Shown: piece after piece, positions 47,586 to 64,000 of the stretch | Numbering within the stretch: the first letter of the stretch is position 1 | Layout: every line of letters starts with the position of its first letter | From: Bacillota bacterium | GTDB lineage: Bacteria; Bacillota; Clostridia; Acetivibrionales; DTU013 | Assembly (NCBI GenBank): GCA_023435925.1 | Contig: JAEZLF010000310.1 | Location: 999 to 64,998 of the forward strand | DNA length: 64,000 bases | Reading direction: 5' to 3' | The notes under the pieces: model-generated | The model's input: the letters and a program-made list of their open reading frames with translations, nothing else | Told to the model about the DNA's origin: nothing | Database searches by the model: none | Position numbers and translations under genes: made by a program

Positions 47586-47601
47586 TATTGTTAGTTTTAA
47601 A

Positions 47602-48147: not shown

Positions 48148-48214
48148 TAAAAAAGAGCCTTCCGGCTCGATAGATATTTAACCAACTCCATTCCATAACT
48201 AATCCATTTCATAT

Positions 48215-49376: not shown

Positions 49377-49505
49377 ATGAATACCGCAGTTAATCCACTG
49401 CTTTTGAACACATTCTATATCATCAACATCGGCTGGACTATATTAATTATCGTTAGGGAATTTGGCAGAATAGTCAAAGAGAAAAGGACACCCAGAACCA
49501 TCTAG
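49377..49505 (+). CDS. small single-TM peptide (42 aa)
   Basis: GGGAGG RBS. Translation: MNTAVNPLLLNTFYIINIGWTILIIVREFGRIVKEKRTPRTI. A 10-bp perfect hairpin GGGATAACTA..TAGTTATCCC lies downstream. Confidence 0.45.
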   Translation: MNTAVNPLLLNTFYIINIGWTILIIVREFGRIVKEKRTPRTI

Positions 49506-49685
49506 ATATCCCCTCCATAGAAAATCACTATTCATGGGATAACTATTCGCAGTAGTTATCCCTAGTTCTTTTAGTTTATCACATTTAGAGATTAACATTC
49601 AATATATTTCTTGACAAATTTAATATTCTGTGCATAAAATAGATCCTTTTTGTGGTTCAGGTGGTTTAATAAGTGGCTTTCTTTG

Positions 49686-50177: not shown

Positions 50178-50395
50178 AATGAAAATCACCTCATATTATT
50201 ATACTGCAAATTCTGGTAATTTTCTTCATGTTTTAGCAAATCATTAGAAAAAATATTTCTATATTGAGTAATTGCAATAGGACTAAATTACTATATTTAT
50301 TTCCATTTTTCGTATTGACTTGTATATCAAAAGTGGTACAATATGCTGTGCAAGAACAAATGTTCATACAATATTTTGTAAAAGGGGGTGAGATA

Positions 50396-50545
50396 ATGCC
50401 AGCAAAGAAAAATAGTGTTAGAACTACAAAAAGTACTGCTACTAAAGCAGCGAAAGCGCTAAGTAATCCCAATTCACCAACACTTCTAAAAAAACTTGCA
50501 GCAAGTTCATTAAGCAACCGGCGGAAAAAGAATAAAGGCTCTTGA
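50396..50545 (+). CDS. small (49 aa) very basic protein
   Basis: AAGGGGGTGA RBS. Translation: MPAKKNSVRTTKSTATKAAKALSNPNSPTLLKKLAASSLSNRRKKNKGS. A GGGCAG..CTGCCC plus T-run terminator lies downstream. Confidence 0.5.
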   Translation: MPAKKNSVRTTKSTATKAAKALSNPNSPTLLKKLAASSLSNRRKKNKGS

Positions 50546-50692
50546 TACATATCTAAGCCTTTATCTAACTGTTTTATTTCATATGGGCAGGTCTCTCGCA
50601 AAGGCTGCCCTATTTTTCTGTAGATTATTTCTACATAGAATTAAAAAATCCTGCTAAATTAAATTATTTATTGTGTAAATTTTCACACAATG

Positions 50693-50720
50693 AAAAAGGC
50701 CTCCGATTAGGGAGGTCAAA
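50693..50720 (-). terminator. rho-independent terminator
   Basis: Minus strand GACCUCC-CUAAUC-GGAGGCC followed by UUUUUC. Confidence 0.55.
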
Positions 50721-50801
50721 TAGTTAATCTCTTCTCGGATCTACTTGTTTTTTAGTTTCAATGAAAGATAAATTTTCCCAAGGTAAGTAAGCATGATGCT
50801 T

Positions 50802-51026
50802 TTAATACACCCTAGTTACAGGAATAAAAACATTTGTACCAACTATCTCCATTTCATAAAATCCGTTATTAGTATAAATCCTAGCTTGAGGCATATAAAA
50901 ATAGAAATAATAATAATAATATTGAGACTGTTGCCATGTCTGCCTATTTGTTAATTTTACTATCGTTTCGCCTTCCCAACCATTGAATTCTCCATCAACT
51001 TGTCCAGTTAAATATAATTTTCTCAT
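50802..51026 (-). CDS. hypothetical small protein with an aromatic run (QYYYYYFYFY)
   Basis: The ATG at 51026 lies 6 nt after a GGAGG RBS. Confidence 0.5.
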   Translation of the reverse strand: MRKLYLTGQVDGEFNGWEGETIVKLTNRQTWQQSQYYYYYFYFYMPQARIYTNNGFYEMEIVGTNVFIPVTRVY

Positions 51027-51326
51027 AACAATCCTCCACACAAAATTCTTCACATATTATACCATATTATAGATATAAATGAAATGTTTTGGTGGTTGAG
51101 TTAGAGGTTACTAGGTCAGTAGTACAGTAGAAGGGTACTACTAAATTGCAGATACCCTTTACCAATTTGATTTATATGTATTCGCTATTGATCGGCGAAT
51201 GAAAAGCAATTTTACAAAGTTTTCCCTTTTATCAGGTAGCCCCTATACGGGGCATCTTCCATCAATCTTTTATATCCCAAATTAATAAAAGCATAGTTTG
51301 TGGCAATGTTCTCTAATTTCAATTCT

Positions 51327-51770
51327 CTATACTTTTTTATCTTCATTTATTCCCCTAAATCCTTTTGTAAGTTCCTTCAACTCTTCTAAAACTTCCTTCA
51401 TGCTCTTACCCTTATTAGCTAAATAATCGTCATAGCAGCCCTGATTAATAAGCATAACCTTTATATCATTATTTATCTTCCTTATACTCAATGAGTCTGG
51501 GAACCTATAACCTCTATCATCTATTAATAAAGCAATATTATCACCATCTAAACCGTCATAAAGCATAATCCTATCTTCAGTAATTTCAATGCCTGTACAT
51601 TCCGGCAGAAATAAAATATCTATAAAATAATTCTTAAACTTACCGCTAACTGGTTTACTAAATAGATAATGCTCTTTTGTGTTAATATAATACTCATGAC
51701 CAATTAATACTCCATTATTTTCAACCAAAATCGCATTCAATATTGCTTCAATATTAACCTGCATCTTCAT
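51327..51770 (-). CDS. hypothetical protein
   Basis: 147-aa ORF that overlaps the upstream GIY-YIG gene by 17 nt. Confidence 0.5.
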   Translation of the reverse strand: MKMQVNIEAILNAILVENNGVLIGHEYYINTKEHYLFSKPVSGKFKNYFIDILFLPECTGIEITEDRIMLYDGLDGDNIALLIDDRGYRFPDSLSIRKINNDIKVMLINQGCYDDYLANKGKSMKEVLEELKELTKGFRGINEDKKV

Positions 51771-52254
51771 TATCCTCCTCTAAACTTCCCCATCTTTTAC
51801 CATTGACTATTCTGCTGATATGTACTGTGCTAACCTTAAATCTTTCAGCTAGTTCCACCTGAGTATAATCCCCTTCTCTATAGAGCTGCCTTATTGCATA
51901 TACGTCTTGCTCCGACAATCTACAATTACCGTTATTACTACCTTGCTGGCATTGAGATTTTATTAATTTCGCTTCTTGGCTGTTAAAGGGTGTTCGACCT
52001 GGCTTTATTTTATTGAGGACGGTAAACAAACTTGACATATAACCAATCCAAAACTCTTCTCTTTCCTGCAATTCTTCAACAGTACACTCCTCTAGAATCT
52101 CATATTTTGTATTATCAAAATCCTTAAAATAAGGATGTATTCCCTTTTTGATCCTTGCAAGATGATTTGACCACCTACGTTTTATATCTATACTTGCCCC
52201 AATGTAAGCCTGATTTGTGTTTGTGATCATATAAATTCCTATGTACTTCTTCAT
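51754..52254 (-). CDS. GIY-YIG nuclease-domain protein with C-terminal HTH
   Basis: IGIYMITN...AYIGASIDIKRRWSNH is GIY-YIG-like. The C-terminus YTQVELAERFKVSTVHISRIVNGKRW is an HTH. Confidence 0.7.
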   Translation of the reverse strand: MKKYIGIYMITNTNQAYIGASIDIKRRWSNHLARIKKGIHPYFKDFDNTKYEILEECTVEELQEREEFWIGYMSSLFTVLNKIKPGRTPFNSQEAKLIKSQCQQGSNNGNCRLSEQDVYAIRQLYREGDYTQVELAERFKVSTVHISRIVNGKRWGSLEEDNEDAG

Positions 52255-52353
52255 TTTTAAATTCCTCCATTACTGCTGCTGTTATACCAATGTGCTTAAA
52301 TCTCACTGTTATTTCAAATTTGAATTCAACTATCTTTGATATTTGTAAATAAA

Positions 52354-52632
52354 CTATGCCAATGCTTCACTCATGAGCTGTCTTGTAATTTTATAATTTC
52401 TCAGAAAATTGTAGATTGCAAGATCAATACTATTATCCGGCATGTAAAAACTGTTAAGACACTGCTGCACCGAATCATCCATTTCAAACACCAAGTACGC
52501 CATTCCATCTTCATCTACCGCAGCATACAATGGTTGGTACCCTTTTGTTAAAAGCCATGCACATTTATTAGCAGACTTCAATTTGATTATAGATTCATTT
52601 TCATTCACTATTTTATTTGTCCTCCATTTCAT
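52354..52632 (-). CDS. hypothetical small phage protein
   Basis: 92-aa ORF. Confidence 0.45.
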   Translation of the reverse strand: MKWRTNKIVNENESIIKLKSANKCAWLLTKGYQPLYAAVDEDGMAYLVFEMDDSVQQCLNSFYMPDNSIDLAIYNFLRNYKITRQLMSEALA

Positions 52633-52932
52633 ATTTTTTTTGTTGACAATATACTATTGCAATGGTAGTATATATTTGAGATATTTTAGACATTTTCCAA
52701 AAAACGCATATAAGAAAGGTGTTGCAGTTAACAACACCCATCTATATCGTAGTCCAAACAAAATGCCTCTGCATTTCTCCTACTTATATTCCTTATACTC
52801 AACTTTACACAAACGCTATAGCACGCTTATATTAAGGCTTTGGAGCACAATTCAATTATTTATATGTTACCATAATCTCTGTATAACCTTGATAATATTG
52901 GACAAATTTACATTTTCTAAATGTGGAATATG

Positions 52933-55758
52933 TTATGATGCTTTTCTTTTTCTATCTCTTTCTTTAATCTTTTCTTCGGCACAGTTAGGGCACATCTTTT
53001 GTCGATTGCTTTTCTTCTCGAATTTTTCATTGCAACAGGTACAAACACTGAGTTTATCAATTCTTCTGACAACACCTGTGAGATCTGATTTAATATTATC
53101 ACAAAGATTATCATACACATATCCACCAAGTATATCAAACAGAAAGCTTTTTCCTGATTCCGATTTCTCCGTAAATACATATTTTATAATATTGTCTACA
53201 GCAAAATGTATATTAATATCCAGACTTATTATATCTTTGACAAAATCTATTAATAGGCTCTGGTTAGTAAGTCTTGCAACTTCTCTTTCATCCAATTCCT
53301 CAAAATTATTAGCATTATTGTATATATACGCTTGCTGCTGTAATCCCACATACTTTTGATAAATTTCAATGACTCTATTATCTATTTCAATTCTGGAATC
53401 GTTCATCATCTTACGGTAGTTAAATCGAGGAATATTTTCAAAATTAAAATTAGTATGGGGAATATCTTCAATTATTTGTGCAATCCTATCAACCGTACCT
53501 TCTCCTACACCAATATCTAAGCATTTGCTACTATCATAATCCTTTGCAAACTTAAAGAAGTAAGGCATTTCCCTATCACTTTTTAGAAATTGTCTCATTC
53601 TCTTATTGATTGTGACAAAATCTAATGACTTGGCACTATCTATCGAAAAGTTATTTAGTGCAGTCAATATTTTTGCTTTCTTTAGCAATACTTTCTTTTC
53701 ATCATCATTTGCCCCAGGATACATATTCCAGATTTGTGTCATTTTATTGGAATACTTTCCTACATTGCCTACCTTATAAGCGTAAGTCAAACTGTCATAT
53801 ATATGCTCATTATTAACTATCTGACAACCTGCAACACCCATTTCATAATACAACGGATTAATTCCTTCCATATTTCTTTTTGCTATTTTTATCAAGTCAT
53901 TTTGGTTTACAATAAGCAATTGATCCCCGTCACAGTCATACATAAGTACTTTACTAGCCAAATCATGAATGTTTACATATATAGCATTAGTGAGGAACCA
54001 ATCTTTATGCTCATTTCGCTTTCTATTGTTTGTTATCCAATGTTCTTTATATAGACTGGGTGACCTATTCAGCAATATTTCTTTTTGCGGAAACATTCTG
54101 CAATGTACTTCTTTTTCTTTCAATAAACCTTTTGGATTCTTATCACCTTTAAATATGTATTCACAGTAACTATACAGATCAGGTATAACAAAGGCATATG
54201 CAGCATCAATTTTTATCTTTCCTGCTTTAGCTGATTTTTTAATACTGGTTAGTTTATCTTCTATCCTATTTTTTACCCAAATATCACGTATAATTGATGG
54301 ATACTTATTAACACAGATAGCCAGATTAGATTGTTCATCATAGCCAAGTACTTTAAGCATAGCGTCAATCTTAGTATGTGCATTTATTATTAGCTCTACT
54401 GTTGGCTGAGTCAGTACCTTCAATTCTTCATCTGTAATATCTGTCAATGTCTGGAGCATCTGATAATTGTAAGTTGCTTTTTTATAGTAATATTTATCCT
54501 TATTCCTATTGGTCTTAATATCTTCCTCAATGTTACATTTACTTGCTTCACATCCATGTTCCTTGAACAATTGTTTATACATATCCCAACCAGAAAGTGT
54601 AGTCCCATTTTCGGCATTATATTTTTCCGCTAATGTCTTATAATACTTCCACATCTTAAACTGACTTTTACTGAAGATTATCTGAATATTTTCCTCAAAA
54701 ATATCGTGCTCAATGTTATATATATCTGTAACTTTATAATTGCCATTATTTTCACTTTGGCACCATCTTTTAATGTCCCATACTGCAAGCAGACCTTTCA
54801 TCCAAGGAAGTCTAATCATAAAGTTTTTGTCGGATAATTCTGGACTTATCATTCCAGCACCATCAATATGATTTATGGTTATATCCTTATCTACATCAGG
54901 AGTAACTTCCAAATTCCTACTGATGTAATCTACTTTACCAGTAACTATAGTTTCGAAATCATCACATACAATACATCTATCAATGCAAAAACCATCCCAT
55001 ACATCAGTAGCAGATAATTGTAATGCCAAATAACTAAGCATTTTATTAATATTGCAGCCTTGATATTCAGATTCATTCATATCTTGTATATCTAATCCGC
55101 ACTGTACTTTGTCTTTATGCTGATTCCAAAGAGACTCTTTGATAAAAAGTATCTTGTGTTTGCGAATTTGACCAGCACTAGCAGTCAAAGTAATATATTT
55201 CTCTTCTCTCCATCTGAAGCCATTATCAATAATAGACTTCATAATATTATTTTCATGCTCTGATACTATCCTAATCACAATAATATCATCGGTTATTTTG
55301 TTTTCTCCCAAGTCTAATATTCTACTAAGAGAACCTTCAAACACTGATATAGTATGATATTCAGATAATTCTTTGGTGATCTTCCTATTATTATTTTTGT
55401 TTCTATTTAATAATTCCGCTAAATATTTTTCAGCCTTTGTAATTTTATTATTAATCTCATTGTAAAAGACATTCTCTTTCAATGCATTTTTATAATCTGT
55501 TGATTGTCTCAAATATTTATGCTTCTTTACAAATTGATTGAACGACTTCTTTTTATGATACTTTAAATCTCTTACTTCCTGCCAATTTTTATACTTTAGT
55601 TTTTCAGTATCTTTATTGACAATTTGATATAATGTGAAATTCATAATAGCATACTTAATTGTATTAAGATTACTGATTGCTTTATTAATTTTATTTTCTT
55701 TTTTTGTGAAGAATACTCTAGTATCCACACTGTACATCTTAAATTGTCTATTCATCAT
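52933..55758 (-). CDS. YonO / RdRP-like two-barrel single-subunit RNA polymerase candidate with C-terminal zinc ribbon
   Basis: IRLPWMKGLLAVWD is like the first double-psi beta-barrel (R.P..KG.L). LLNRSPSLYKEH ... VLMYDCDGDQLLIV matches the R.P.L...H ... DxDGD catalytic loop of cellular RdRPs, YonO and the beta-prime NADFDGD motif. The C-terminus is CTCC...CPNC. Confidence 0.7.
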   Translation of the reverse strand: MMNRQFKMYSVDTRVFFTKKENKINKAISNLNTIKYAIMNFTLYQIVNKDTEKLKYKNWQEVRDLKYHKKKSFNQFVKKHKYLRQSTDYKNALKENVFYNEINNKITKAEKYLAELLNRNKNNNRKITKELSEYHTISVFEGSLSRILDLGENKITDDIIVIRIVSEHENNIMKSIIDNGFRWREEKYITLTASAGQIRKHKILFIKESLWNQHKDKVQCGLDIQDMNESEYQGCNINKMLSYLALQLSATDVWDGFCIDRCIVCDDFETIVTGKVDYISRNLEVTPDVDKDITINHIDGAGMISPELSDKNFMIRLPWMKGLLAVWDIKRWCQSENNGNYKVTDIYNIEHDIFEENIQIIFSKSQFKMWKYYKTLAEKYNAENGTTLSGWDMYKQLFKEHGCEASKCNIEEDIKTNRNKDKYYYKKATYNYQMLQTLTDITDEELKVLTQPTVELIINAHTKIDAMLKVLGYDEQSNLAICVNKYPSIIRDIWVKNRIEDKLTSIKKSAKAGKIKIDAAYAFVIPDLYSYCEYIFKGDKNPKGLLKEKEVHCRMFPQKEILLNRSPSLYKEHWITNNRKRNEHKDWFLTNAIYVNIHDLASKVLMYDCDGDQLLIVNQNDLIKIAKRNMEGINPLYYEMGVAGCQIVNNEHIYDSLTYAYKVGNVGKYSNKMTQIWNMYPGANDDEKKVLLKKAKILTALNNFSIDSAKSLDFVTINKRMRQFLKSDREMPYFFKFAKDYDSSKCLDIGVGEGTVDRIAQIIEDIPHTNFNFENIPRFNYRKMMNDSRIEIDNRVIEIYQKYVGLQQQAYIYNNANNFEELDEREVARLTNQSLLIDFVKDIISLDINIHFAVDNIIKYVFTEKSESGKSFLFDILGGYVYDNLCDNIKSDLTGVVRRIDKLSVCTCCNEKFEKKSNRQKMCPNCAEEKIKERDRKRKAS

Positions 55759-55805
55759 AACTTACAATTTCCTCCTATTCATACATTTTGTTTGTTTAGT
55801 TAATT

Positions 55806-57236
55806 CTAAAATGATATACATTCTTCATATTTCTCATTTTCATCAATCATGTCTTGGCATAGCTCACAATACTCTTGACCAGGCAGAGCATTTTCTTGTT
55901 TGCAGCAGGAACATAGTTTATTGATTTGATTAGTAAGAACAATACTTTCAGGTATTTTATCTTTCTTTTTATTTGGATCCCCAGTTTTATTACCTGATCT
56001 TTTAAATTCCAAAAAACCATCATAAGAAGCATGTGTACAACTGGTAAACTGCTTCAAGTACCATTCAACAGTCATTTTTCCATCAATGATTCTTTGAATA
56101 AGGTCTTCATCCTTTTCGGAATAATAACTACCTATATATTCCTTCATCAAATCTACTTCTGGATTTTTTGAATTATAGAAATCATTTAGTTCATCAGAAA
56201 AGCTTCTGTTACTTCCAGATTGTTTATTTTCGCACTCCTCAGAACAATATTCAACAAATGCTTCAACTGGTTTTCCGCATGTTTGGCATACAGAACTTAT
56301 CTCTATGCAGCAACGATTACATAACCCCTGTGTTACCTTATCAACTTCATTACCACAACCTGAACATATAACTTTTTTCTTTTTATTGCCTTGTAGCGAT
56401 TTAGATTCTGGTTTATCTTTCTTTTGTTTCTTCTTTCCTGCAATATTCCAACCTTCATCCTTCTTCACTTTTTTGTAACCAGAAAGAATACACTTAAATA
56501 ATTCATGATATTGTTCTTCTGTCATATTTGGATAATCTTTAACCAAGATATAATGATATGCACCTGTAATACACTTATCATTCTGGTACATATCTCCGAC
56601 ACTGTCATATCTGATAAGGTTCAACTTAACAAGAATATCTAAATATTCCTTAATAGTATCTTTCTTATAAATAACACCATCATTTATGAAAGTATCAAAT
56701 GTTGGATAGCAGAATTTATATTGTTCTGAAGATAATCTTCCATCATCTTCACTTGGTTGGAAAATTCTACTTACAATATCACAGTAAATATTAAATAACT
56801 TGATATTGTTGATTGGTGTTTCTTTATAAGATAGAATCGAAATAATTTCATCTTCATCAATTTTCGAATATCCATATTCTGTTTCTGATTCATTGTTATA
56901 GTTTAAGGAAATTAATTCATCTGATCTTATGTTATCCAAATCAATATTTTGACCTATTGTAAATATTCCTGTATAGATAATTTTAGATAGAAACGATTTA
57001 AAATATTGTCTCTGTCTTTTGATGTTACCAGATATATCTATATAGAACTTATTGATATAACTTAAAATAGAATTTATCGAAACAACACAATCTCCATGAA
57101 TTGTTAACATACGCTTTAAACATATGTAATAAATTATGCAGAAAGAATATAGTTCACCAAATGATAAAATTGATTGCCAGTTCTTTTTACTATTTGGCCT
57201 AACACAGATATTGCTAAAACTAATATTATTCTTCAT
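55806..57236 (-). CDS. multi-zinc-ribbon early protein (candidate DNA-binding / replication-initiation protein)
   Basis: 476 aa with three CxxC...CxxC clusters (CSGCG..CNRCC, CQTCG..CSEEC, CSCCK..CELC) and a basic linker. An iteron array lies upstream. Confidence 0.4.
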   Translation of the reverse strand: MKNNISFSNICVRPNSKKNWQSILSFGELYSFCIIYYICLKRMLTIHGDCVVSINSILSYINKFYIDISGNIKRQRQYFKSFLSKIIYTGIFTIGQNIDLDNIRSDELISLNYNNESETEYGYSKIDEDEIISILSYKETPINNIKLFNIYCDIVSRIFQPSEDDGRLSSEQYKFCYPTFDTFINDGVIYKKDTIKEYLDILVKLNLIRYDSVGDMYQNDKCITGAYHYILVKDYPNMTEEQYHELFKCILSGYKKVKKDEGWNIAGKKKQKKDKPESKSLQGNKKKKVICSGCGNEVDKVTQGLCNRCCIEISSVCQTCGKPVEAFVEYCSEECENKQSGSNRSFSDELNDFYNSKNPEVDLMKEYIGSYYSEKDEDLIQRIIDGKMTVEWYLKQFTSCTHASYDGFLEFKRSGNKTGDPNKKKDKIPESIVLTNQINKLCSCCKQENALPGQEYCELCQDMIDENEKYEECISF

Positions 57237-57372
57237 ATTTGTATATACACCTTCACCCTTTCGTATTTAAAAATTTATATTTATAAATAGTTGCATTTTT
57301 CGCAAGAAAAATAGAATAAGTTTATTATTGTTTGTTTTTCTTAATGATTATTTTTATTACTGATTGTTTGAT

Positions 57373-57420
57373 TAATAGTGGTTATCTCTTAGTAGTGATT
57401 ATTTATTAGTAGAGATTATT
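57373..57420. repeat. three tandem TAGTRGWKATTAT repeats
   Basis: aatAGTGGTTATctc, ttAGTAGTGATTATtt and ttAGTAGAGATTATt, with a period of about 16 bp. Confidence 0.5.
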
Positions 57421-57466
57421 ACGGTCACTTGGCGTACCCACTTTGGGACATATAATCATGTTCATT

Positions 57467-57622
57467 TGTACCAATCTGGTACAGATAAACTACATCGTCT
57501 GTAACCATTTGGTACAGATAAACCATTTTGTGTGTTTCTTTTGGTTACAGATAAATGCTTCGATGTGTAACCAATTGGTACAGTAAAATTATTTATGTGT
57601 CCCTATTTGGTACAGACAAAAT
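57467..57622. repeat. five-unit iteron array: TGT(A)ACCA-N3-TGGTACAGATAAA, period about 33 bp (candidate origin or operator array)
   Basis: GGTACAG cores start at 57478, 57511, 57543, 57577 and 57609. Unit 1 contains the perfect palindrome TGTACCA-ATC-TGGTACA. Confidence 0.7.
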
Positions 57623-57940
57623 ATTCTGTTCTCGTTATGTATTCACTTTTCAAGGTGCAATAAATCAGGCCAGCTCCTACAGACATAATTTCACACATCT
57701 GTAGTAGTTGGATTTTCGATATCTGGACATGCGGAAACAAACCTCATGTTAAATATCAAATATTTTGTTTTTTTGAATGCATTGGAATTGCAAAACTTAC
57801 AGGCGGGATTTTATTTTTTTGTAACCGTACAGTATAAAATAATATCTCTCTTGTAATTAATTAATTTCTACATTCAGTGCCTTGGTATGACTACGTTTGC
57901 GCTATTTTTCTGAGACTATAAAATAATGTTAAATTATTTG

Positions 57941-57969
57941 TTGACAACTACCCTCCCTCATGTTATTAT
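57941..57969 (+). promoter_or_regulatory. near-consensus sigma-A promoter, rightward
   Basis: TTGACA, 17-nt spacer, TATTAT, preceded by a TGt extended -10. Confidence 0.6.
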
Positions 57970-58029
57970 TAGTTTGTGGTTAAAAACCACGTTTTATTTG
58001 CGTTTTCAAAAAGTACAGTCTCGAACTTG

Positions 58030-58058
58030 ATTATAGCAGGTCTGATTGTTTTTGTCAA
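58030..58058 (-). promoter_or_regulatory. perfect-consensus sigma-A promoter, leftward (toward the iterons, the zinc-ribbon protein and the RNAP-like gene)
   Basis: Minus strand: TTGACA, 17-nt spacer, TATAAT. Confidence 0.65.
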
Positions 58059-58326
58059 CCTGTTTTTTGTTAATTTTATCAACAAACTCATCATATCCAT
58101 CATATTTTTCTTTCAATTTATTTGATACGCTGAGTAACCTATTCTCTCACTGGTTTAATGACGTAGAAGAGCAGAAGGAATGTATCCTTATATGGGAATG
58201 CATAGATTAGCCAATTTTGATGCTTACAAACGATAATGGTGAAGTCTCTCACGAGTATCTGGTTAACTTCTTAGCAACTTTACTGAAACGCTTATAATCA
58301 CTCATTGAATGATTCTTTATATGCTT

Positions 58327-58653
58327 TTACTTTTTATCCTTTAGTTTTCTTGGTACAACATATAACCAGTATGTACCATCTGTCTTCTTATTAATCCTAA
58401 TAGAAAATTCGCCATATTGCTTTGTTGCACTAATGCTGTAGTTACCATAAGTATCTTCTTCAAACATTATTGGAAAATTAGAACTGCTTGCATACCCCAT
58501 ACTATAAAATTCTGTAATGCAATTTTCTATTGTATGATAGCTAAGATTTTCAATTTTACAACTTAAATTTTCCATATCAGTATCATCCTTTCGATCTACT
58601 GAGAGATACTTTCTATTCATACAAAATACCTCTATTGCCTTTTGACTAACCAT
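58327..58653 (-). CDS. hypothetical protein
   Basis: 108-aa ORF that overlaps the upstream gene by 22 nt. Confidence 0.5.
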   Translation of the reverse strand: MVSQKAIEVFCMNRKYLSVDRKDDTDMENLSCKIENLSYHTIENCITEFYSMGYASSSNFPIMFEEDTYGNYSISATKQYGEFSIRINKKTDGTYWLYVVPRKLKDKK

Positions 58654-59183
58654 ACATAATGTTTATCAGGAACACCAGAAATAGAATATCTAATTAATGC
58701 TCTCATATAAGCAAGCCTCATATGTCCTTCAAGTAGATGTAATGGTCTAATCAATTTACCATATTTTAATTCTTTTTCTTCATCAATAATACTATTATTT
58801 ACATCAAAAACAATAACTGGTTTTAGCCAAGTTCTATTTTCATTCATAAAACCCCCTAACCAAGTTTGCTTAACACGAAATTCAGGATTGTTTATAAAAT
58901 CATCTCCCCAATAATCTTGGGTATCAAGAAATGCCGTTCCAATACTCATGATTTGCTCCCTAGAAAACAAGACTTTATTAAAAACCAAACGATCATATTG
59001 AATCCACCAATACTTGTTACAGAAATCATCAAAGTGCCTATACGTCCATTGTTCAAGGACGCACTCAGGAAAGTTTGGAAGCATTTTTTTATACTTCTCA
59101 GAAACATTCACAAATGGTTCTAATTGATATGTTACATAATCAAACTTTGGTTTCAATTCTCTAAATTCATCAATATCAATCAT
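58632..59183 (-). CDS. hypothetical protein (LLEGHMRLAY is faintly ParB/Srx-like)
   Basis: 183-aa ORF; the motif resemblance is weak. Confidence 0.45.
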   Translation of the reverse strand: MIDIDEFRELKPKFDYVTYQLEPFVNVSEKYKKMLPNFPECVLEQWTYRHFDDFCNKYWWIQYDRLVFNKVLFSREQIMSIGTAFLDTQDYWGDDFINNPEFRVKQTWLGGFMNENRTWLKPVIVFDVNNSIIDEEKELKYGKLIRPLHLLEGHMRLAYMRALIRYSISGVPDKHYVWLVKRQ

Positions 59184-59218
59184 ATATGATAACTCTCTAT
59201 AAGTTTTGCAATCATTGT

Positions 59219-59374
59219 CTAATCATTATCAATACTTATCTCATCACTGAAATATTCATATGTTCCTTCAACAGGTTTACTACAATCGTTGCACACATCC
59301 CAATGTCCCCACATATCCATTTCAGTATATACACTAGATGAATGTTCGCATTTGCAAAATTCAGTTTCTTCCAC
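59219..59374 (-). CDS. small Cys-rich (zinc-ribbon-like) protein, 51 aa
   Basis: GTG start after an AAGGGAG RBS. Translation: VEETEFCKCEHSSSVYTEMDMWGHWDVCNDCSKPVEGTYEYFSDEISIDND. Confidence 0.35.
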   Translation of the reverse strand: MEETEFCKCEHSSSVYTEMDMWGHWDVCNDCSKPVEGTYEYFSDEISIDND

Positions 59375-59539
59375 AGTTATTAACACTCCCTTTGCCAATA
59401 TAAGAAGTAAATAAACTTTCAGTAATAAATTATATCACATAACTTTACATATGTATCCTATTAAGAAAAATCTCAATATTAAATTATCAAAGTACAATCT
59501 ATAAGATCAAAGGGCTGCATTGTCCCTATTCAGGTGGTT

Positions 59540-59615
59540 CCCACGACCTCCCCGTCATATTTGACGGATCATTGGTTTCGGCCTGTTCCACCGACCCAGG
59601 CCATCATCAGGTGGA
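59540..59615 (-). ncRNA. candidate type I hammerhead self-cleaving ribozyme
   Basis: Minus-strand RNA: UCCAC-CUGAUGA-U-GGCCUG(loop GGUCGGUGGAA)CAGGCC-GAAA-CC..CCGUCA(AAUA)UGACGG..GGUC|GUGGG. All core blocks, a GUC cleavage triplet and three stems are in the right order. It is a GC-rich island in AT-rich phage DNA. Confidence 0.6.
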
Positions 59616-59864
59616 TTTATTAGCTAAAAGCAAAAGAAATATCATGTGTACCTGGACTCTCTTTTTGATGTAGTCAACTGCTTCCTTAAATTCCGTAAAA
59701 ATCAAATTGTTGTCGATACTGGAGTAGGATAATTGACTATCCTCAAATACCTGAAAGTAATATACCTGCATCACAATTAACTCAAATATGGCTATTTTGC
59801 TATTCCCTGCTGTCCATGTCCATAATGGATAGACTTTGCCTTCAGCCTTACAAAAGTTCAGCAT
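59607..59864 (-). CDS. hypothetical protein
   Basis: 85-aa ORF. Its stop is the UGA inside the CUGAUGA box, so the 3' end may be fortuitous. Confidence 0.4.
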   Translation of the reverse strand: MLNFCKAEGKVYPLWTWTAGNSKIAIFELIVMQVYYFQVFEDSQLSYSSIDNNLIFTEFKEAVDYIKKRVQVHMIFLLLLANKST

Positions 59865-59925
59865 ATCTATAGCACCTCACATTAGCATATAATAATTAAA
59901 TCTTATCTATATGTAATAGAACATA

Positions 59926-60393
59926 TCAAAAACACCTATCCCACTTGGAGTGATTAACTGCTCCAATATCCTTAAGGAACTGTCTGCATGTTCCAACCTG
60001 TCCACGTGGTATATCAATATGGATGTGTTTAGGATGACCAGTAAACTTGCCCAAATGTTCTCTTGCATTCCACTGTTTTTTCAGAGCATATGGATGATTG
60101 GGGTCTTTCAAATCATTATAATCTATGTAGTCAACTTTAAACGTCAGGTCAAATCCTACGTAATCAGCAATTGCTTGGAGTTTTTCTCTTATTCTGTTGG
60201 CTGCTTCTTCCGATGTAATTAATCCTAAGATGCAGTTTTGGCTCATACCACAGTGATAAGACCAATATGACGGTGTTTTATTAAAATGCTGATCTACGGT
60301 CATAATACTAAAAGTTCCAGTGCTACCAGACTGAATAAATCCATGATTGTCTACTACTACCCAATACTTTTCAATAGCGTTTTCCATAATCAT
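59926..60393 (-). CDS. hypothetical early protein (first gene of the leftward switch promoter)
   Basis: 155 aa with a GAGAGGGG RBS. Confidence 0.5.
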   Translation of the reverse strand: MIMENAIEKYWVVVDNHGFIQSGSTGTFSIMTVDQHFNKTPSYWSYHCGMSQNCILGLITSEEAANRIREKLQAIADYVGFDLTFKVDYIDYNDLKDPNHPYALKKQWNAREHLGKFTGHPKHIHIDIPRGQVGTCRQFLKDIGAVNHSKWDRCF

Positions 60394-60444
60394 GATCCCC
60401 TCTCGTTTTCGGCTGTGCCGTATTTTGTTTTCGACTATGGTTTG

Positions 60445-60535
60445 ATTATACTACGCAAATCGTAATTAGTCAATACGATTATCGTAATTTTTATTTTATT
60501 TTCGTATTGACTCGTTACGCAAATCGTATTATAAT
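60445..60535. promoter_or_regulatory. genetic-switch region: mirrored back-to-back promoters with three TACG-N5-CGTA operators
   Basis: Leftward promoter: TTGACT (60473-60468), 17 nt, TATAAT (60450-60445). Rightward promoter: TTGACT (60507-60512), 17 nt, TATAAT (60530-60535). Operators: TACGCAAATCGTA at 60452-60464 and 60516-60528, and TACGATTATCGTA at 60474-60486. Confidence 0.65.
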
Positions 60536-60560
60536 AGACAGGAAAGAGAGGTGAAACAAA

Positions 60561-60782
60561 TTGCCAGTAAAATTTAAACTAAAAATGCTTCTTGCCATTA
60601 ATGAAATGACACAAAAGGAATTGGCTGAAAAAACAGGTATAAGGCCACCAACTATTTCAGCAATATGCAATAATTCAATTAAGCAAATACCCGTATCAGT
60701 AATAGAAAAGATATGTAAATGTCTAAATTGTAAGCCTGTAGATTGGATTGACTACATAGACGAAAATCAAGAAAACACCTGA
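60561..60782 (+). CDS. XRE/Cro-CI-type HTH regulator (73 aa), the only clear plus-strand regulator in the prophage
   Basis: MTQKELAEKTGIRPPTISAICNN is an HTH. TTG start 8 nt after a GAGAGGTG RBS. Confidence 0.75.
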   Translation: MPVKFKLKMLLAINEMTQKELAEKTGIRPPTISAICNNSIKQIPVSVIEKICKCLNCKPVDWIDYIDENQENT

Positions 60783-60797
60783 TGAAGGTGTTTTTTT
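60774..60797. terminator. bidirectional terminator
   Basis: AACACCT-GATGA-AGGTGTT followed by TTTTT on the plus strand. The minus-strand reading is also followed by UUUUCUUG. Confidence 0.6.
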
Positions 60798-60995
60798 GAT
60801 TTAGACTCATCAATTTTCTTTTTGGCCTTCAAGTGTACTTCTGGAGATATAAGCCCTTCTTTATGAATTTGATCATTAAGCGTATACAAGATATCCTTCT
60901 CCAGCATATCATGTATTCTTTCAATATAGTCTTTTATTAAAATATCTTTTATGTTTTCGGTAATTCTGTTGGATTAGCTTACCACCTTTTTATCT

Positions 60996-61274
60996 TCAAA
61001 CAGCAGCCATCACTCTATCATTGTACTTAACATAAAACATATCATCAGTCCTGAATAGCAATACAGAATTCTTGCCGTCATCAAATAACACAATATACTG
61101 TTCATCATTTAGGATTTTGCGCAAAAATCTCTTGTCTATTTTACTTGCAAAGATCTGAGCTTCTTTGACGTTAGTGATAGCTCGATAACCATAGATGTAA
61201 TTTGCATAGTACTCTTTTTTAATATAACGCAGGAAGTTCTTGGTTCTATCTTCCACATATATCACACCTATCAA
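60996..61274 (-). CDS. hypothetical protein
   Basis: 92-aa ORF. Confidence 0.45.
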   Translation of the reverse strand: MIGVIYVEDRTKNFLRYIKKEYYANYIYGYRAITNVKEAQIFASKIDKRFLRKILNDEQYIVLFDDGKNSVLLFRTDDMFYVKYNDRVMAAV

Positions 61275-61470
61275 ACTTGATAGGTAAATTGTATCATAAA
61301 GTAAGTTTATTGTAAATTATTTCCATTATTTTGAGGAAATATAGTTGTATTTATCATTTCTTGTAATATAATATTTTATAATTGTTTTATTTAAATACTG
61401 AATCCGACAGATGTAGTTTATACATAAATTACAGATTTCAGAGATACAATATAATCGGAGGTGTTTTGAA

Positions 61471-61542
61471 TGGTATTACTATTCGTATGTTCCTGTTTAT
61501 ATGTTGGTATTGAACTTGCGTATTTAATAGCTACAAAATAAA
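61471..61542 (+). CDS. 23-aa hydrophobic peptide (type I toxin-like)
   Basis: GGAGGTG RBS 6 nt upstream. Translation: MVLLFVCSCLYVGIELAYLIATK. A TATAAT lies at 61451-61456. Confidence 0.35.
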
Positions 61543-61725
61543 TCAACGTCTCTACTATCGTTAATTTAATAGAGCACTTAATAGATTTCAACTATATTGA
61601 GCCTTTTTTAAAGTTATTATTTTATAGTTTTTCACTTACGAAATCATTTTTTATTACTAAGTAAAGATAGCAAGAAAAATGCAAAAAAAAAAAAAAATAG
61701 CCTTCACCGGCTATTCATTATTAAT

Positions 61726-61992
61726 TTACTCATCTTTGATTCTTACATATGTAAGATCAATATCTTCCGGATATTCAATTTGCAATTCTCTATTTGATAC
61801 TATACTGTCAATATGTGCACCCTTGTATATTATACAAAACATACCTTGATTTAAATTATTATATATATCAACATGATTTCCATCATTATCATAATGATAT
61901 GCTATATGGAAATATTGCCCTGTTTTTTTGATAAAAGATATGTTGTGTTTTACCTCTGTCCTTTTAACCTCATAGAGCTTAATATTATCCAT
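61726..61992 (-). CDS. hypothetical protein
   Basis: The ATG at 61992 lies 6 nt after an AGGGGG RBS; the track ORF starts at 62034. Confidence 0.45.
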   Translation of the reverse strand: MDNIKLYEVKRTEVKHNISFIKKTGQYFHIAYHYDNDGNHVDIYNNLNQGMFCIIYKGAHIDSIVSNRELQIEYPEDIDLTYVRIKDE

Positions 61993-62046
61993 TATATACC
62001 CCCTGAAATGCATATTAGCAAAATCTACCTTCATTTTGTAAAGATA

Positions 62047-62286
62047 TTATTTCTTCAGTTCTTGCATACAATTTGGGCAAATGTTTTTACCTTTGTATAC
62101 GGAAATATCCTTTGCATCTCCGCAAAATATACAAGCCGGCTCGTATTTCTTTAAAATAATAGTTGATTGGTCAACATAAATCTCAAGAGAGTCCTTCTCC
62201 GAAATATCCAAAGTCCTTCTGAGTTCGATCGGGAGAACAACTCTTCCCAGTTCATCAACTTTTCTAACAATTCCTGTAGCTTTCAT
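62047..62286 (-). CDS. AbrB/SpoVT-type DNA-binding protein fused to a C-terminal zinc ribbon
   Basis: MKATGIVRKVDELGRVVLPIELRRTLDI is an AbrB swapped-hairpin domain. The C-terminus is CIFCG...CPNC. GTGAGG RBS. Confidence 0.75.
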   Translation of the reverse strand: MKATGIVRKVDELGRVVLPIELRRTLDISEKDSLEIYVDQSTIILKKYEPACIFCGDAKDISVYKGKNICPNCMQELKK

Positions 62287-62330
62287 ATTATACCTCACAT
62301 TTTATTTTATTTTTGTAACTTATGTAAGAT

Positions 62331-62359
62331 ATTGTAATATAATAGTAAATTATTGTCAA
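62331..62359 (-). promoter_or_regulatory. strong sigma-A-type promoter for the AbrB-like gene at the prophage right end
   Basis: Minus strand: TTGACA, 17-nt spacer, TACAAT. Confidence 0.6.
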
Positions 62360-62532
62360 TAGTGGGTGAAAAAAAATAAAAAGTACTTTTGTAGAATACA
62401 TTTTTGTTTAATAATAAAAGATGAGCATACAAATCTATATATAACTGCTTCACAGTTGAGTTTTCAAATTTAAATATAAAAGATAATTAATTGGGGTAAA
62501 TTAATAATAGCTTATCATGAAAGGACGCTACT

Positions 62533-62709
62533 ATGAAAGAATTTATTGATAATAAATACAAAAATGCAAACCGTTTAATTAACGAAAAATCACCTTACCT
62601 ATTACAACATGCTTACAATCCAGTAGATTGGTATCCTTGGAGTGATGAGGCTTTTCAGAAAGCTGCAAGAGAAAGCAAGCCTGTATTCTTGTCCATAGGC
62701 TATTCATAG
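62533..62709 (+). pseudogene. phage-borne, AT-rich homologue of the target gene's 5' end (copy C), ending at an in-frame TAG
   Basis: [59 protein letters not shown] 21-nt insertion (TAGTTGCGGCGTATTATATTT, 62707-62727) sits relative to copies A and B, and the frame then continues TCHWCHV. Confidence 0.75.
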
Positions 62710-62727
62710 TTGCGGCGTATTATATTT

Positions 62728-62744
62728 ACATGCCATTGGTGTCA
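62728..62744. repeat. attR core block ACATGCCATTGGTGTCA (inferred crossover CA at 62743-62744)
   Basis: It matches 28442-28458 and 27945-27961. Composition changes from phage-like to host-like at this point. Confidence 0.7.
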
Positions 62745-64000
62745 CGTCATGGAGCAGGAAAGCTTTGAGGATGCTGAAGTTGCTCAGCTACTGAATAAAA
62801 ACTTTGTAGCAATAAAGGTGGACCGGGAAGAACGTCCGGACATTGACAGCATCTATATGTCGGTATGCCAGGCTCTCACCGGCCATGGCGGATGGCCAAT
62901 GACCATCATTATGACTCCGGACAAAAAACCTTTTTTCGCAGGCACATACTTTCCAAAGCATGATCGGATGGGACTACCGGGTATTATGACCATTCTTGAA
63001 AGAGCGTCACTCTCCTGGAGGGAAAACAAGGAAGCTGTTTTGGAAACCGGCAATCACATTGTCAACGCTATATCGGCACCTGTGAAAGAGGAAGGCGACA
63101 TAGATTATTCCGAGCTCGTTCAGAAAGCCTTCAGTCAGTATAAATCCGCTTTTGACAGTATGCACGGTGGCTTTGGAAATGCCCCCAAATTCCCCACTCC
63201 CCACACATTATTTTTTCTTTTACGTTACTGGAAGCTTACAGGTGACGATTCAGCACTCAAAATGACGGAGAAAACCCTTGATTCCATGAGGCGCGGCGGG
63301 ATATTCGACCATATCGGATATGGTTTTTGCCGATACTCCACTGACCGAATCTGGCTGGTGCCGCATTTCGAGAAGATGCTCTATGACAATGCCTTGCTCG
63401 CCATAGCTTATCTGGAAACGTACCAGGCAACCGGAAACGGTCAATATGCAAAGACCGCAGAAGAAATATTTACCTATATCCTCCGAGATATGACGTCACC
63501 GGAGGGTGCTTTCTATTCTGCCGAGGATGCAGATTCAGAAGCTGAGGACGGAAAGAACGAAGAGGGGTTTTTTTATACATGGACACCCGATGAGATCACA
63601 CAGGTTCTTGGCGTAACCGATGCTCAGCGTTTTATGCTGCTTTTTAACATTACATCAAAGGGTAATTTTGAAGGACGCAGCATTCTCAATACTATAAAGG
63701 GCAATATACCAGGCAGTGACCTTGAATTTGTAGAAGCCTGCCGGCAAAAGCTCTTTGAGAACCGCGAGAAGAGGCCGCACCCATTCAAGGATGACAAGGT
63801 GCTGACCTCCTGGAACGGATTGATGATTGCAGCTTTGGCAATAGGCGGTAGAGTTCTTGGAAAAGACCAATACACCTTGGCAGCAGAAAAAGCAGCCAAA
63901 TTTATTCTTTCCAATCTGATTGACAAAGATGGCCGCCTGCTTGCCGTATACCGCGACAGTGCTTCCCCTGTCAAAGGTTACGCCGATGATTATACCTTCA
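62745..64000 (+). CDS. remainder of the DUF255/YyaL-type thioredoxin-domain protein (six-hairpin/epimerase-like C-domain); the 3' end runs off the window
   Basis: Open frame to the window end: HVMEQESFEDAEVAQLLNKNFVAIKVDREERPDIDSIYM...GGWPMT...HGGFGNAPKFPTPH...DRIWLVPHFEKMLYDNALL. The ORF track lacks it because there is no in-window start or stop pair. Confidence 0.85.

Follow-up and report, generated by a model that had tools for sequence, protein, structure and literature searches.

The elements known for regulated gene integrity include SPbeta in spsM, skin in sigK, gin in gerE and the comK phages. Other integrative elements restore the tRNA genes and protein genes that they target by means of a fragment carried at attP (Mageeney et al. 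2020, PMC7192596). In the A118/LI integrase model, the motif assigned to the zinc-ribbon domain occupies positions 16-24 in attP and 11-19 in attB (Rutherford et al. 2013, PMC3783163). The 64,000-nucleotide stretch analysed here (the window) contains a prophage that interrupts a host yyaL/DUF255 gene, a target not described for any prophage or integrase in the literature searched, and that carries its own copy of the 5′ end of this gene, closed by a stop codon.

Layout of the locus and of its relatives

The prophage is genuine, with PHROGs matches to terminase, portal, major head and tape measure proteins all present. Its large serine recombinase gene lies at the attL end, and the stop codon of that gene sits at d23-25 of the predicted P′ arm, counting from the putative crossover centre. 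Homologs of the recombinase (33-55% identity) adjoin the same structure at 47 other loci; no relatives of the integrase were recovered from IMG/VR by the peptide-word method. Insertion disrupts the target coding sequence without restoring one continuous ORF. The displaced host 5′ end (copy B) contributes its last ~20 bp as the B half-site of attB, and its ORF continues into phage DNA. Joining copy B up to 28451 with the sequence from 62738 onward gives an in-frame reading that rebuilds the intact ORF; no directionality factor was recognized.

The initial annotation described an AT-rich phage copy of the gene's 5′ end, and the sequence agrees, with an ATG at 62533, 58 codons and a GC3 of 0.28, compared with 0.49-0.50 for the host remainder and copy B. 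This N-fragment aligns to positions 2-47 of the Pfam profile PF03190 (Thioredox_DsbH/DUF255; E = 2e-20) and the remainder to positions 48-162 (E = 1e-50), so the insertion falls exactly between consecutive profile positions 47 and 48. The count of exactly 21 extra nucleotides between GYS and TCHWC (62707-62727) is likewise confirmed, both by this split and by alignment: the window's copies A (27831-27965) and B (28283-28456) each show an exact 21-column gap against the N-fragment region. From 62728 the codons ACA TGC CAT TGG TGT CAC GTC (TCHWCHV) follow, and the host gene then runs to the end of the window. The N-fragment and copy B are ~78% identical, differing at 10 of the final 46 aligned residues. 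Compared with the genome loci, the yyaL DNA of the window reaches at best ~68% identity over most of the remainder and no more than 80% across 239 nt. No clear sigma-70 promoter is predicted upstream of the N-fragment in the window, and neither a terminator nor a known RNA family (Rfam) was detected in the region around the block.

Table 1. Features of the prophage junctions and the interrupted yyaL/DUF255 gene (window coordinates)
Feature	Position	Strand	Basis or remark
Displaced host 5′ end (copy B)	28283..28451	+	Own start; PF03190 positions 1-54; GC3 0.50; ORF list
Prophage, about 34 kb	28452..62737		GC profile; PHROGs matches
Probable P′ half-site of attP, phage-side half of attL	28452..28476		AATACAC at 28468-28474; symmetry with P arm
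Large serine recombinase, 512 aa	28474..30012	-	Resolvase PF00239, Recombinase PF07508, Zn_ribbon_recom PF13408; at attL end
Shine-Dalgarno-like AAAGGA	62520..62525	+	7 nt 5′ of the N-fragment ATG; read from sequence
Phage-borne N-fragment gene	62533..62709	+	58 codons homologous to the yyaL/DUF255 start (to ...FLSIGYS), plus TAG; ORF list
TAG stop	62707..62709	+	Immediately 3′ of GYS
21-nt block TAGTTGCGGCGTATTATATTT, stop codon plus probable outer part of attP P arm	62707..62727	+	Alignment gap
Probable P half-site of attP, now phage-side half of attR	62713..62737		d25 to d1 from putative centre
GCGTATT, candidate zinc-ribbon-domain binding motif	62715..62721		attP register d23-d17
Target-gene remainder TCHWCHV...	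62728..64000	+	Host-derived from ~62738; leaves the window; 633 codons in record L001
Putative crossover dinucleotide at attR (TG of the TGG Trp codon)	62737..62738		Symmetry centre of 40 attP-type relatives

The stop layout is common to more than 200 related elements and is a conserved design, not a recent defect. An unbiased pattern scan of metagenomes, in which the codon after GYS was left unconstrained, yielded 94 genuine unique spacers; a stop (TAG, TAA or TGA) directly follows ...GYS in 94/94, and TGG never does. A genome scan that required a stop collected 198 unique spacers of 14-59 nt in any frame. The lengths have their mode at 20-21 and are not confined to multiples of 3, which two thirds of the spacers fail to be. 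Genome scanning places the structure at no fewer than 120 loci in at least 120 bacterial species of the Clostridia, Bacilli and Negativicutes, and every one of these loci has a genuine stop. All three stop codons occur, even within one spacer family, and the view that this codon serves as a TRR motif in the DNA was rejected because TGG is absent among about 200 spacers. Searching IMG/VR by peptide alone gave nine independent insertion-bearing copies, and in each of them a stop right after GYS precedes a spacer that varies. Among 50,697 GenBank phage records the fragment appears in just one unannotated fragment. Cultured carriers are Hungatella hathewayi DSM 13479, Clostridium ljungdahlii ERI-2, [Clostridium] symbiosum ATCC 14940, Geosporobacter ferrireducens IRF9 and Anaerocolumna aminovalerica DSM 1283.

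These counts bear on the suggestion that a once seamless surrogate 5′ end was recently inactivated, or that the interruption is an assembly or sequencing error. The broken appearance of the ORF, taken alone, invites such an explanation, to which we attach a negligible probability. The stop occupies exactly the same codon in hundreds of independent assemblies and lineages. The loci contain no seamless phage-borne copy, each contiguous GYSTCHW belonging either to an intact gene or to an attL-type site of the host, and the 58-aa ORF of the window is recorded on three contigs. Recent inactivation, as proposed initially, is refuted by the 94/94 spacers and by the recurrence of the layout in at least 120 species with three stop codons; the same recurrence across relatives contradicts an assembly error in the TAG or the insertion. 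Among the relatives the position of the stop is universal and the spacer is variable.

Geometry of the attachment site

We consider it likely that the prophage entered the TCHWC codons of yyaL/DUF255 by means of its large serine recombinase, and that the 21-nt block represents the outer part of the attP P half-site. The initial annotation had offered, as one possibility, that the block keeps the left half-site attP-like rather than attB-like. An inverted repeat, a 5-bp shift and a motif in the nearest relative all support this proposal.

In 40 sites of the unintegrated type, the spacer and P′ arm form an inverted repeat that extends ~25 bp from a centre at T|GG in the Trp codon. Over d14-25, the two arms of these attP-type sites show a complementarity of 0.40-0.62, which falls back to background beyond d25, at about d26-27. 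The 183 attR-type sites give values of 0.01-0.54, mostly below 0.35. The symmetry centre of the related attP sites points to a crossover at TG 62737-38 in the window, instead of the CA at 62743-44 favored earlier.

The outer motif of the P arm is displaced relative to attB. The P-arm consensus T25 G24 G23 T22 T21 matches attB T20 G19 G18 N17 T16; that is, the TGGTT of the spacer lies exactly 5 bp farther out than the TGGNT of attB, which corresponds to the I-G-Y codons. When the P arm is compared with attB, the identity-versus-shift profile peaks at 0 and 5. One locus with both junctions present (L109) carries TTGGGTAT at d14-21 of its B arm and TTGGTTCT at d19-26 of both P and P′, an exact 5-bp shift relative to its own real B arm.

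The nearest relative of the window (L175) keeps GCGG(C/T)GTATT in register, with GTGTATT at d17-23 where the window has GCGTATT, even though its 24-nt length, its flanks and the TTG all differ. Within the window, GCGTATT pairs with GTGTATT, the reverse complement of 28468-28474, in the P′ arm. Thus G(C/T)GTATT is found at d17-23 of both arms, with 8/15 matches over d11-25 (empirical p = 0.03) and 13/25 overall. The 5-bp shift is represented by CGGC at d22-25 versus d17-20, and shifts of 4 and 5 tie at 5/12. Because the window alone shows modest symmetry and a modest shift, the case is carried mainly by the relatives.

Integration could then proceed as follows. The recombinase would insert the prophage into the codons of the CXXC motif (TCHWC), reading a ~25-bp attP half-site whose outer motif, presumably bound by the zinc-ribbon domain, lies 5 bp farther from the crossover than in attB, where its equivalent would be built from the Ile-Gly-Tyr codons of the target. 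The contacts of individual protein domains with individual bases are predictions from this register. The phage gene copy could not run seamlessly into the crossover, because its P arm would then resemble a B arm. The copy would accordingly end right after GYS, and a non-coding spacer would provide the motif in the attP register. Integration would leave the target gene in pieces with no single-chain fusion restored, the 58-aa phage N-fragment would be produced as a separate small protein, and precise excision would join copy B to the remainder and rebuild the intact gene. The remainder in the window would more likely be untranslated, or be weakly translated from the TTG. Such an attP requirement may account for a spacer, but would not explain why a stop is the very first codon after GYS, and it would also leave the purifying selection on the 53-60-aa fragment unaccounted for.

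Fates of the two gene pieces

The N-fragments of the family are 53-60 aa long and always end at the same residue. They evolve under purifying selection, with dN/dS of about 0.13 (pN 0.155 versus pS 0.81). Among the loci listed, the ORFs are intact in about 115 of the 120 not cut by the locus end and have strong Shine-Dalgarno (SD) sites, for example AAGGAGGTGATGCCCT-ATG. Across the family they have a lower GC3 than the host remainder, which makes repeated recent capture from hosts an unlikely cause of the conservation. Recent capture is further disfavored by phage-specific conserved 5′ leaders, by N-termini such as MKEF..., and by the saturation of synonymous sites in ORFs that nevertheless remain intact. 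The surrogate 5′ end of the initial annotation therefore stands as a conserved, translated-looking fragment under purifying selection, but not as part of a seamless fusion ORF with the remainder, which is never formed. Our best guess is that the fragment is a stand-in N-terminal piece. In a few lineages it would clearly pair with a separately started C-piece, judging from an SD and an ATG located two codons ahead of the first Cys. As many as 99/198 lineages lack both a reachable start codon and a Ser codon in front of CHWC. Most elements keep a well-expressed-looking N-fragment, yet show no way of translating the remainder.

Alternatively, the N-fragment might act alone, as a decoy or interfering piece of YyaL or by titrating a partner of a conserved motif within it, with the target switched off until excision; this would amount to regulated gene integrity, as for SPbeta in spsM or the comK phages. 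A stop right after GYS is found throughout the family regardless of frame or start codon, in-frame stops are enriched before CHWC, and the integrase-less mini-elements retain the fragment too. All hosts found are spore-forming Bacillota, in which gene-interrupting elements excised during sporulation are known. We nevertheless regard a stand-alone role as rather doubtful. An activity of the fragment would be purely hypothetical, and the PF03190/PF13899 boundaries suggest that its end falls within a β-strand of the thioredoxin fold and that it would probably not fold by itself. A stand-alone protein does not require the strict adjacency and orientation towards the remainder, and in a few lineages the C-piece appears clearly translated.

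Reinitiation was considered for the remainder. Ribosomes that end at the TAG could restart at TTG 62710, such that a 633-aa C-piece (M-RRIIF-TCHWC...) joins the 58-aa N-fragment and YyaL is kept in the lysogen. In the window the TTG abuts the TAG, the 21 nt preserve the frame, and the gene caller used for the deposited record begins the next ORF at that TTG. In the family, purifying selection on the N-fragment equals in strength that on the host gene, the fragment is always oriented towards the remainder, in-frame starts cluster at -9, and five lineages (L006, L100, L118, L129 and L162) place an SD and an in-frame start two codons before the first Cys. Even so, a restart seems unlikely. A reachable in-frame canonical start is found in only 49/198 spacers. 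Of 28 spacers with a start codon right after the stop, just 4 have it in frame, below the one third expected by chance, while stops in the CHWC frame number 92/198, versus 39 and 60 in the other frames. The nearest relative reads TAG TAA with no start codon, the TTG of the window lacks a preceding SD, and TTG(G/C) after the stop recurs as a piece of the outer-arm motif. As a family feature the restart was rejected: an in-frame start comes before the first upstream stop in 40/120 spacers listed, versus 64% for control frames, and SD-like motifs are barely enriched (5/83 versus 6/187). Of the TAG-TTG split protein envisaged at first, the adjacency and the frame hold in the window, but with 4/28 in frame the arrangement is not a conserved family feature.

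A third route would keep a single chain through recoding, with ribosomes hopping over the spacer from the Ser codon, as in T4 gene 60, or reading the TAG, for example as pyrrolysine. The stop universally follows the last sense codon directly, like the take-off site of gene 60. In 38/120 spacers listed a Ser codon of the same box directly precedes ACN TGY, with no cross-box Ser cases and 0-4 cases at other offsets. Some lineages resemble gene 60 in sequence as well: two spacers (L011 and L012) start with TAGCCTTCGGGCTAT, 15 nt identical to the gene 60 gap, and two others (L118 and L135) match its first 14 nt. SD-like elements with matching landing codons are present in L062, L132 and L078, the first of which also has a stop-proximal hairpin. 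Of 22 long spacers in other lineages, 17 have a predicted fold in which the stop is base-paired, and about 10 of these form a stable tetraloop hairpin there. Lineages with the gene 60-like hairpin are represented by a Paenibacillus or Alicyclobacillus strain.

For the window, recoding of either kind is highly improbable. The block lacks a hairpin (MFE -0.2 kcal/mol, z +1.0) and an SD-like element, and although the take-off codon is TCA, it is TTT, not a Ser codon, that precedes ACA. Short spacers as a class are unstructured (mean z 0.03), and the Ser-like triplet falls in the attB-homologous inner arm, where it could arise without recoding. Readthrough, including pyrrolysine insertion, is not general because two thirds of the spacers are non-multiples of 3 and three stop codons are used; the TAG TAA of the nearest relative rejects it as well.

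Taken to its full extent, translation of both pieces would mean that the host enzyme is deliberately split, with the phage 53-60-aa protein as its working N-terminus. The rest would be supplied from a separate start, namely the TTG in the window prophage or the SD and ATG of the five lineages above, or through a hop in lineages with a gene 60-like UAG-CCUUCGGGCUA hairpin and a matching Ser codon at the end of the spacer. We judge this scenario to be quite improbable. If true, recombinase-site geometry would have imposed a new natural example of fragment complementation or translational bypassing.

Comparison with described systems

The attP reading would replace an apparently broken surrogate gene with a structural rule, whereby the outer motif of attP sits 5 bp beyond its attB position. 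The displacement is seen in nature at about 200 independent sites, all targeting one invariant protein motif, and this set of natural attP/attB pairs could aid the prediction and engineering of integrase specificity. The module of integrase, N-fragment gene, stop and attP is widespread in spore-forming Bacillota and is undescribed in the literature searched. The question of what the N-fragment does is directly testable because cultured strains carry the structure.

Like SPbeta, skin, gin and the comK phages, the present elements are inserted by a large serine recombinase in the middle of a conserved gene, their excision would rebuild that gene, and their hosts are endospore-forming Bacillota. 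To our knowledge, none of those elements carries a conserved translated copy of the interrupted gene part.

With the Listeria phage A118/LI integrase (Rutherford et al. 2013, PMC3783163), the window recombinase shares the Resolvase, Recombinase and zinc-ribbon domains, and the sites share a ~50-bp imperfect inverted repeat around a central dinucleotide, with an attP outer motif 5 bp farther out. The window family differs in that its attB motif is made of the invariant target codons I-G-Y, and a second, coding version of these codons is retained by the phage immediately beyond attP. Here the rule emerges from comparing about 200 natural sites rather than from mutagenesis, and binding is predicted from it.

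The attP-borne elements that restore their targets (Mageeney et al. 2020, PMC7192596) also place a homolog of the displaced gene part beside attP, reading into the remainder. In the window family, by contrast, the fragment is a 5′ end that has its own ribosome-binding site and terminates in a stop; a gap of 14-59 nt, in whatever frame, separates it from the remainder, and there is no fused ORF. T4 gene 60 shares the stop right after the last sense codon, and some sister lineages of the window go further, with a UUCG hairpin that includes the stop, a 14-15 nt match and a matching codon downstream. The window itself departs from gene 60 in having no hairpin, matching landing codon or SD-like element, and its gap is instead a predicted protein-binding DNA site.

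The interrupted yyaL gene and its phage-borne 5' end

The initial annotation described the region 62533-62744 as a 58-residue phage copy of the host N-terminus followed by 21 extra nucleotides that begin with TAG and then by TCHWC, and the sequence, ORF, alignment and Pfam profile all bear this out. Directly 3' of the 21-nt block lies ACA TGC CAT TGG TGT CAC GTC ATG GAG (TCHWCHVME), from which the host gene, here termed the remainder, continues to the window end. Aligned with the other two yyaL 5' ends, copy B (the displaced host 5' end at attL) and copy A (a third copy further left), the phage copy leaves a gap of exactly 21 columns. PF03190 (DUF255, YyaL type) is matched at positions 2-47 by the phage copy and at 48-162 by the remainder, so the insertion falls between consecutive profile positions. 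The codons are AT-rich as originally proposed, with a GC3 of 0.28 in the phage copy, below the values of copy B (0.50) and the remainder (0.49). Copy B adjoins the 3' end of a 512-aa minus-strand ORF, whose Resolvase, Recombinase and zinc-ribbon domains (Pfam) identify it as a large serine recombinase. Between the junctions, 34 kb of DNA carry genes for terminase, portal, major head and tape measure.

Features of the yyaL prophage and its surroundings
Feature	Position	Strand	Remarks
Phage copy ORF (N-fragment)	ATG 62533	+	58 residues; ORF list
Stop TAG after phage copy	62707-62709	+	sequence
21-nt block TAGTTGCGGCGTATTATATTT	62707-62727	+	sequence
Copy B	28283-28456		own start; unbroken through GYSTCHWC, then phage DNA (...QFHQIH*)
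Copy A	27831-27965		without start; PYFLQHAH..., then RI*
Right flank of copy A	27966-28282		ATAACAGCAATT
attP/attB centre in attR	62737/62738
attP/attB centre in attL	28451/28452
P arm	62713-62737
P' arm	28452-28476
Block common to P and P'	62715-62721; 28468-28474		G(C/T)GTATT, d17-23
Tyrosine-integrase-like ORF	32403-33395	-	330 aa; PHROG 1, E 7e-51
Tail or minor structural gene	30694-32394
Four direct repeats	57467-57629		~32 nt (TGTAACCATTTGGTACAGATAAAC...), 32-66 nt apart
Palindromic element AATGAAnAAGGCCTCCGATTAnGGAGGTC	33634-33662; 50689-50717		29 nt, GC-rich
AbrB/MazE-type gene	62047-62298	-
Near-consensus promoter	62359-62331		TTGACA-17-TACAAT
Low-GC stretch	24000-27740

Copy A lies 320 bp upstream of copy B, with 80% DNA identity, nearly identical protein and a host-like GC3 of 0.53. 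Its right flank resembles the P' arms (attP half-sites) of another spacer family (TTGCTGTTA...), and together they appear to be an attL scar that another element left at an earlier time; the origin of the intact copy B downstream is not accounted for by this reading. Well before attL, at ~24000, GC drops from ~0.47 to 0.33-0.37. Genes here code for a tocopherol-cyclase-like protein, a DUF6976 protein and spore photoproduct lyase; the stretch could be a further island or just host DNA of low GC. Inside the prophage, the tyrosine-integrase-like ORF, a second recombinase, adjoins the tail or minor structural gene; a tail-fibre inversion system and a remnant module are both possibilities. The intergenic direct repeats look like iterons or operators, and the two copies of the palindromic element (93% identical) are 17 kb apart. 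Beside the N-fragment, on the opposite strand and with the promoter close by, an AbrB/MazE-type DNA-binding domain is fused to a zinc ribbon; this gene may be a prophage regulator.

Conservation of the stop, the spacer and the N-fragment

Searching IMG/VR with the 58-aa peptide alone returned 14 loci, comprising two intact genes, three host-5'-end/phage junctions and nine phage-borne copies. All nine copies carry TAG, TAA or TGA directly after S(I/V)GYS, then a spacer of ~15-60 nt, then (T)CHWC. A DNA pattern, FLS(I/V)GYS + TRR + 12-42 nt + TGYCAYTGGTG, scanned over a collection with one genome per species, matched at least 120 loci, in hosts that include Clostridium, Lacrimispora, Anaerocolumna, Hungatella, Desulfosporosinus, Desulfitobacterium, Syntrophomonas, Paenibacillus, Heyndrickxia, Lentibacillus, Alicyclobacillus and Pelosinus. 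Among the matches listed, every one has a true stop and none has TGG. Because this pattern demanded TRR, metagenome contigs were rescanned with the codon after GYS left free; a stop comes first in 94 of 98 unique spacers (TGA 53, TAG 31, TAA 10), and the remaining four are spurious matches, with neither a Ser codon nor a gene downstream. Spacers measure 14-59 nt with a sharp mode at 20-21, and all three frames are represented.

One spacer family (e.g. CGTTGGTTATAGAAA...) occurs with TAG, TAA and TGA alike, even with a second in-frame stop following, which argues that a stop at exactly the codon after GYS is under selection. Such selection disposes of two earlier suspicions. Recent inactivation is ruled out by the stop in 9/9 IMG/VR copies and 94/94 genuine metagenome spacers and by the layout in the genome loci, and assembly error by the recurrence of the same stop-plus-spacer layout across relatives. 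What related prophages keep is a stop after GYS and a spacer; the identity of the stop and the spacer length vary.

Of the 120 N-fragment ORFs that escape truncation at a locus end, about 115 are intact, with lengths of 53-60 aa or more. Very strong ribosome-binding sites precede many of them, and a conserved leader, AAGGAGGTGATGCCCT-ATG, recurs in some. Over 42 codons pN is 0.155 versus a pS of 0.81, and median dN/dS is 0.13 versus 0.17 for the adjacent host-encoded codons. Given the low pN/pS and a family GC3 (0.38) below that of the host remainder (0.47), the fragment is, by these measures, maintained as coding sequence within the phage lineage. It always reads towards attP, and in L006 and L177 integrase, N-fragment and attP follow in this order on one strand. 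The proposal of a surrogate 5' end holds insofar as the fragment is intact and under purifying selection; a fused ORF with the remainder is absent, with the stop and spacer intervening. The fragment may substitute for the N-terminal piece, act as a mini-protein that is independent or interfering, or belong to a recoding device.

The fragment is kept also in integrase-less elements of ~0.75-3.9 kb. Seven loci (L252, L263, L109, L035, L246, L150 and L241) have yyaL insertions of this size between attL-type and attR-type junctions, and at least L035 and L109 lack an integrase ORF; these could be remnants of decayed elements, or satellites that depend on mobilisation in trans. L115 has two attP-type sites (551 and 4437) 3.9 kb apart, and Anaerocolumna sp. 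MB42-C2 (L057/L091) combines an attR-type with an attP-type site, which suggests tandem arrays of elements competing for the yyaL target.

The spacer as the probable outer attP arm

Forty fetched sites continue into non-gene sequence, with no host remainder, and a recombinase gene adjoins several; these are taken as unintegrated or tandem attP sites. Here the spacer makes up an inverted repeat with the far-side sequence, and the centre of this repeat falls between T and GG in the Trp codon (CAYT/GG). Complementarity per position at d14-25 (bp from the inferred centre) is 0.40-0.62, versus 0.01-0.54, mostly <0.35, at 183 prophage-host junctions, and is at background level again from d27. Clear single cases are L005 (TTTTTACTTTAG), L009 (TTCATCCTAT), L017 (TTGCAGTAA) and L223 (TTGGTGTCTATTA). 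Since the repeat reaches ~d25, the symmetry indicates attP half-sites of ~25 bp, with the spacer as the outer ~15 bp of the P arm.

Across these sites the P-arm consensus reads T25 G24 G23 T22 T21, and the target-gene codons ATT GGN TAT give T20 G19 G18 N17 T16. Identity between spacer and I-G-Y-S codons peaks at shifts of 0 (inner homology) and 5. In L109, a small element with both junctions within one locus, the true B arm reads TTGGGTAT at d14-21, and the P and P' arms both read TTGGTTCT at d19-26. The same rule of 5-bp outward displacement holds for a Listeria phage integrase, whose zinc-ribbon-domain motif lies at 16-24 in attP and 11-19 in attB (Rutherford et al. 2013, PMC3783163).

For the window, the P arm and the reverse-complemented P' arm agree at 13/25 positions, and at 8/15 over d11-25 (empirical p 0.03 against random prophage 15-mers). 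The host CGGC (ATC GGC) at d17-20 recurs as CGGC at d22-25, with shifts 4 and 5 tied at 5/12 each. The nearest N-fragment relative, L175 (80% nt identity), reads TCA TAG TAA GGGCGGTGTATTTGG TCA ACA TGT; it has GCGG(C/T)GTATT in the same register, and its spacer length (24 nt), flanks and TTG differ. Two convergent stops enclose the window attP: the left one, the N-fragment TAG, lies at d29-31, and the right one, which ends the integrase gene, at d23-25. This layout is found also in the unintegrated-type locus L005.

The idea that the insertion keeps the left half-site attP-like is thus supported by the symmetry of attP-type sites, the motif shift and the L175 register. Were the phage copy to continue unbroken into TCHWC, the phage would have a B-type arm; on this reading the spacer provides a P-type arm in its place. 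We infer that the zinc-ribbon domain reads GCGTATT and that the crossover is TG of TGG; excision would then join 28451 to 62738 and rebuild the yyaL reading frame.

Translation of the remainder and known strategies

A stop-restart at TAG-TTG had also been considered, and the TTG is in frame in the window. Among 198 unique spacers, only 49 have a reachable ATG, GTG or TTG in the CHWC frame, 92 have an internal stop in that frame (versus 39 and 60 in the others), and 99 lack both a start and a Ser codon before ACN; these counts give no support for translation of the remainder as a family property. A start codon directly follows the stop in 28 spacers and is in frame in only four (the window, L025, L086 and L183), less than the one third expected by chance, and the TTG is missing from L175. 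In the window, therefore, TAG-TTG probably arose by chance or belongs to the outer arm. Five loci (L006, L100, L118, L129 and L162) look built for a separate C-piece: each has an SD and, exactly two codons ahead of the first Cys, a start (M-x-T-CHWC).

Among the matches listed, 38 of 120 spacers have a Ser codon directly before ACN from the same codon box as the fragment's last codon; the other box never occurs there, and other offsets give 0-4. This could reflect inner-arm homology to attB or codon re-pairing. About 10 of the 22 long spacers (28 nt or more) open with a tetraloop hairpin including the stop (L011/L012, L118, L135, L074, L114, L100, L002, L062 and L234). L011/L012 begin with TAGCCTTCGGGCTAT, which over 15 nt is identical to the beginning of the coding gap in T4 gene 60 as checked against T4 records, and L118 and L135 have the first 14 nt in common with it. 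L062 additionally has AAGAGATT, and its landing codon, TCG, matches the take-off codon; an SD-like element with such a match occurs also in L234, L132 and L078. In these lineages, translational bypassing of an attachment site is a candidate mechanism. The gene 60 features of these sister lineages are absent from the window, whose spacer has no hairpin (MFE -0.2 kcal/mol, z +1.0) and places TTT, not a Ser codon, before ACA. The remainder is presumably silent or weakly translated in this lysogen.

Neither yyaL/DUF255 as a target of integration nor this integrase/N-fragment/attP module is described in the literature searched, and among GenBank phage records the N-fragment appears in only one, an unannotated fragment. 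The explanation of the 21 nt is conventional once seen; it accounts for the spacer rather than for the universally truncated, conserved N-fragment. Gene-interrupting serine-recombinase elements are known in spore formers. Elements that bring along a target-gene fragment in attP are also known, as is disruption without restoration, or 'regulated gene integrity' (Mageeney et al. 2020, PMC7192596). The yyaL elements lie between the two: they carry a conserved fragment, yet always terminate it at the attP edge.
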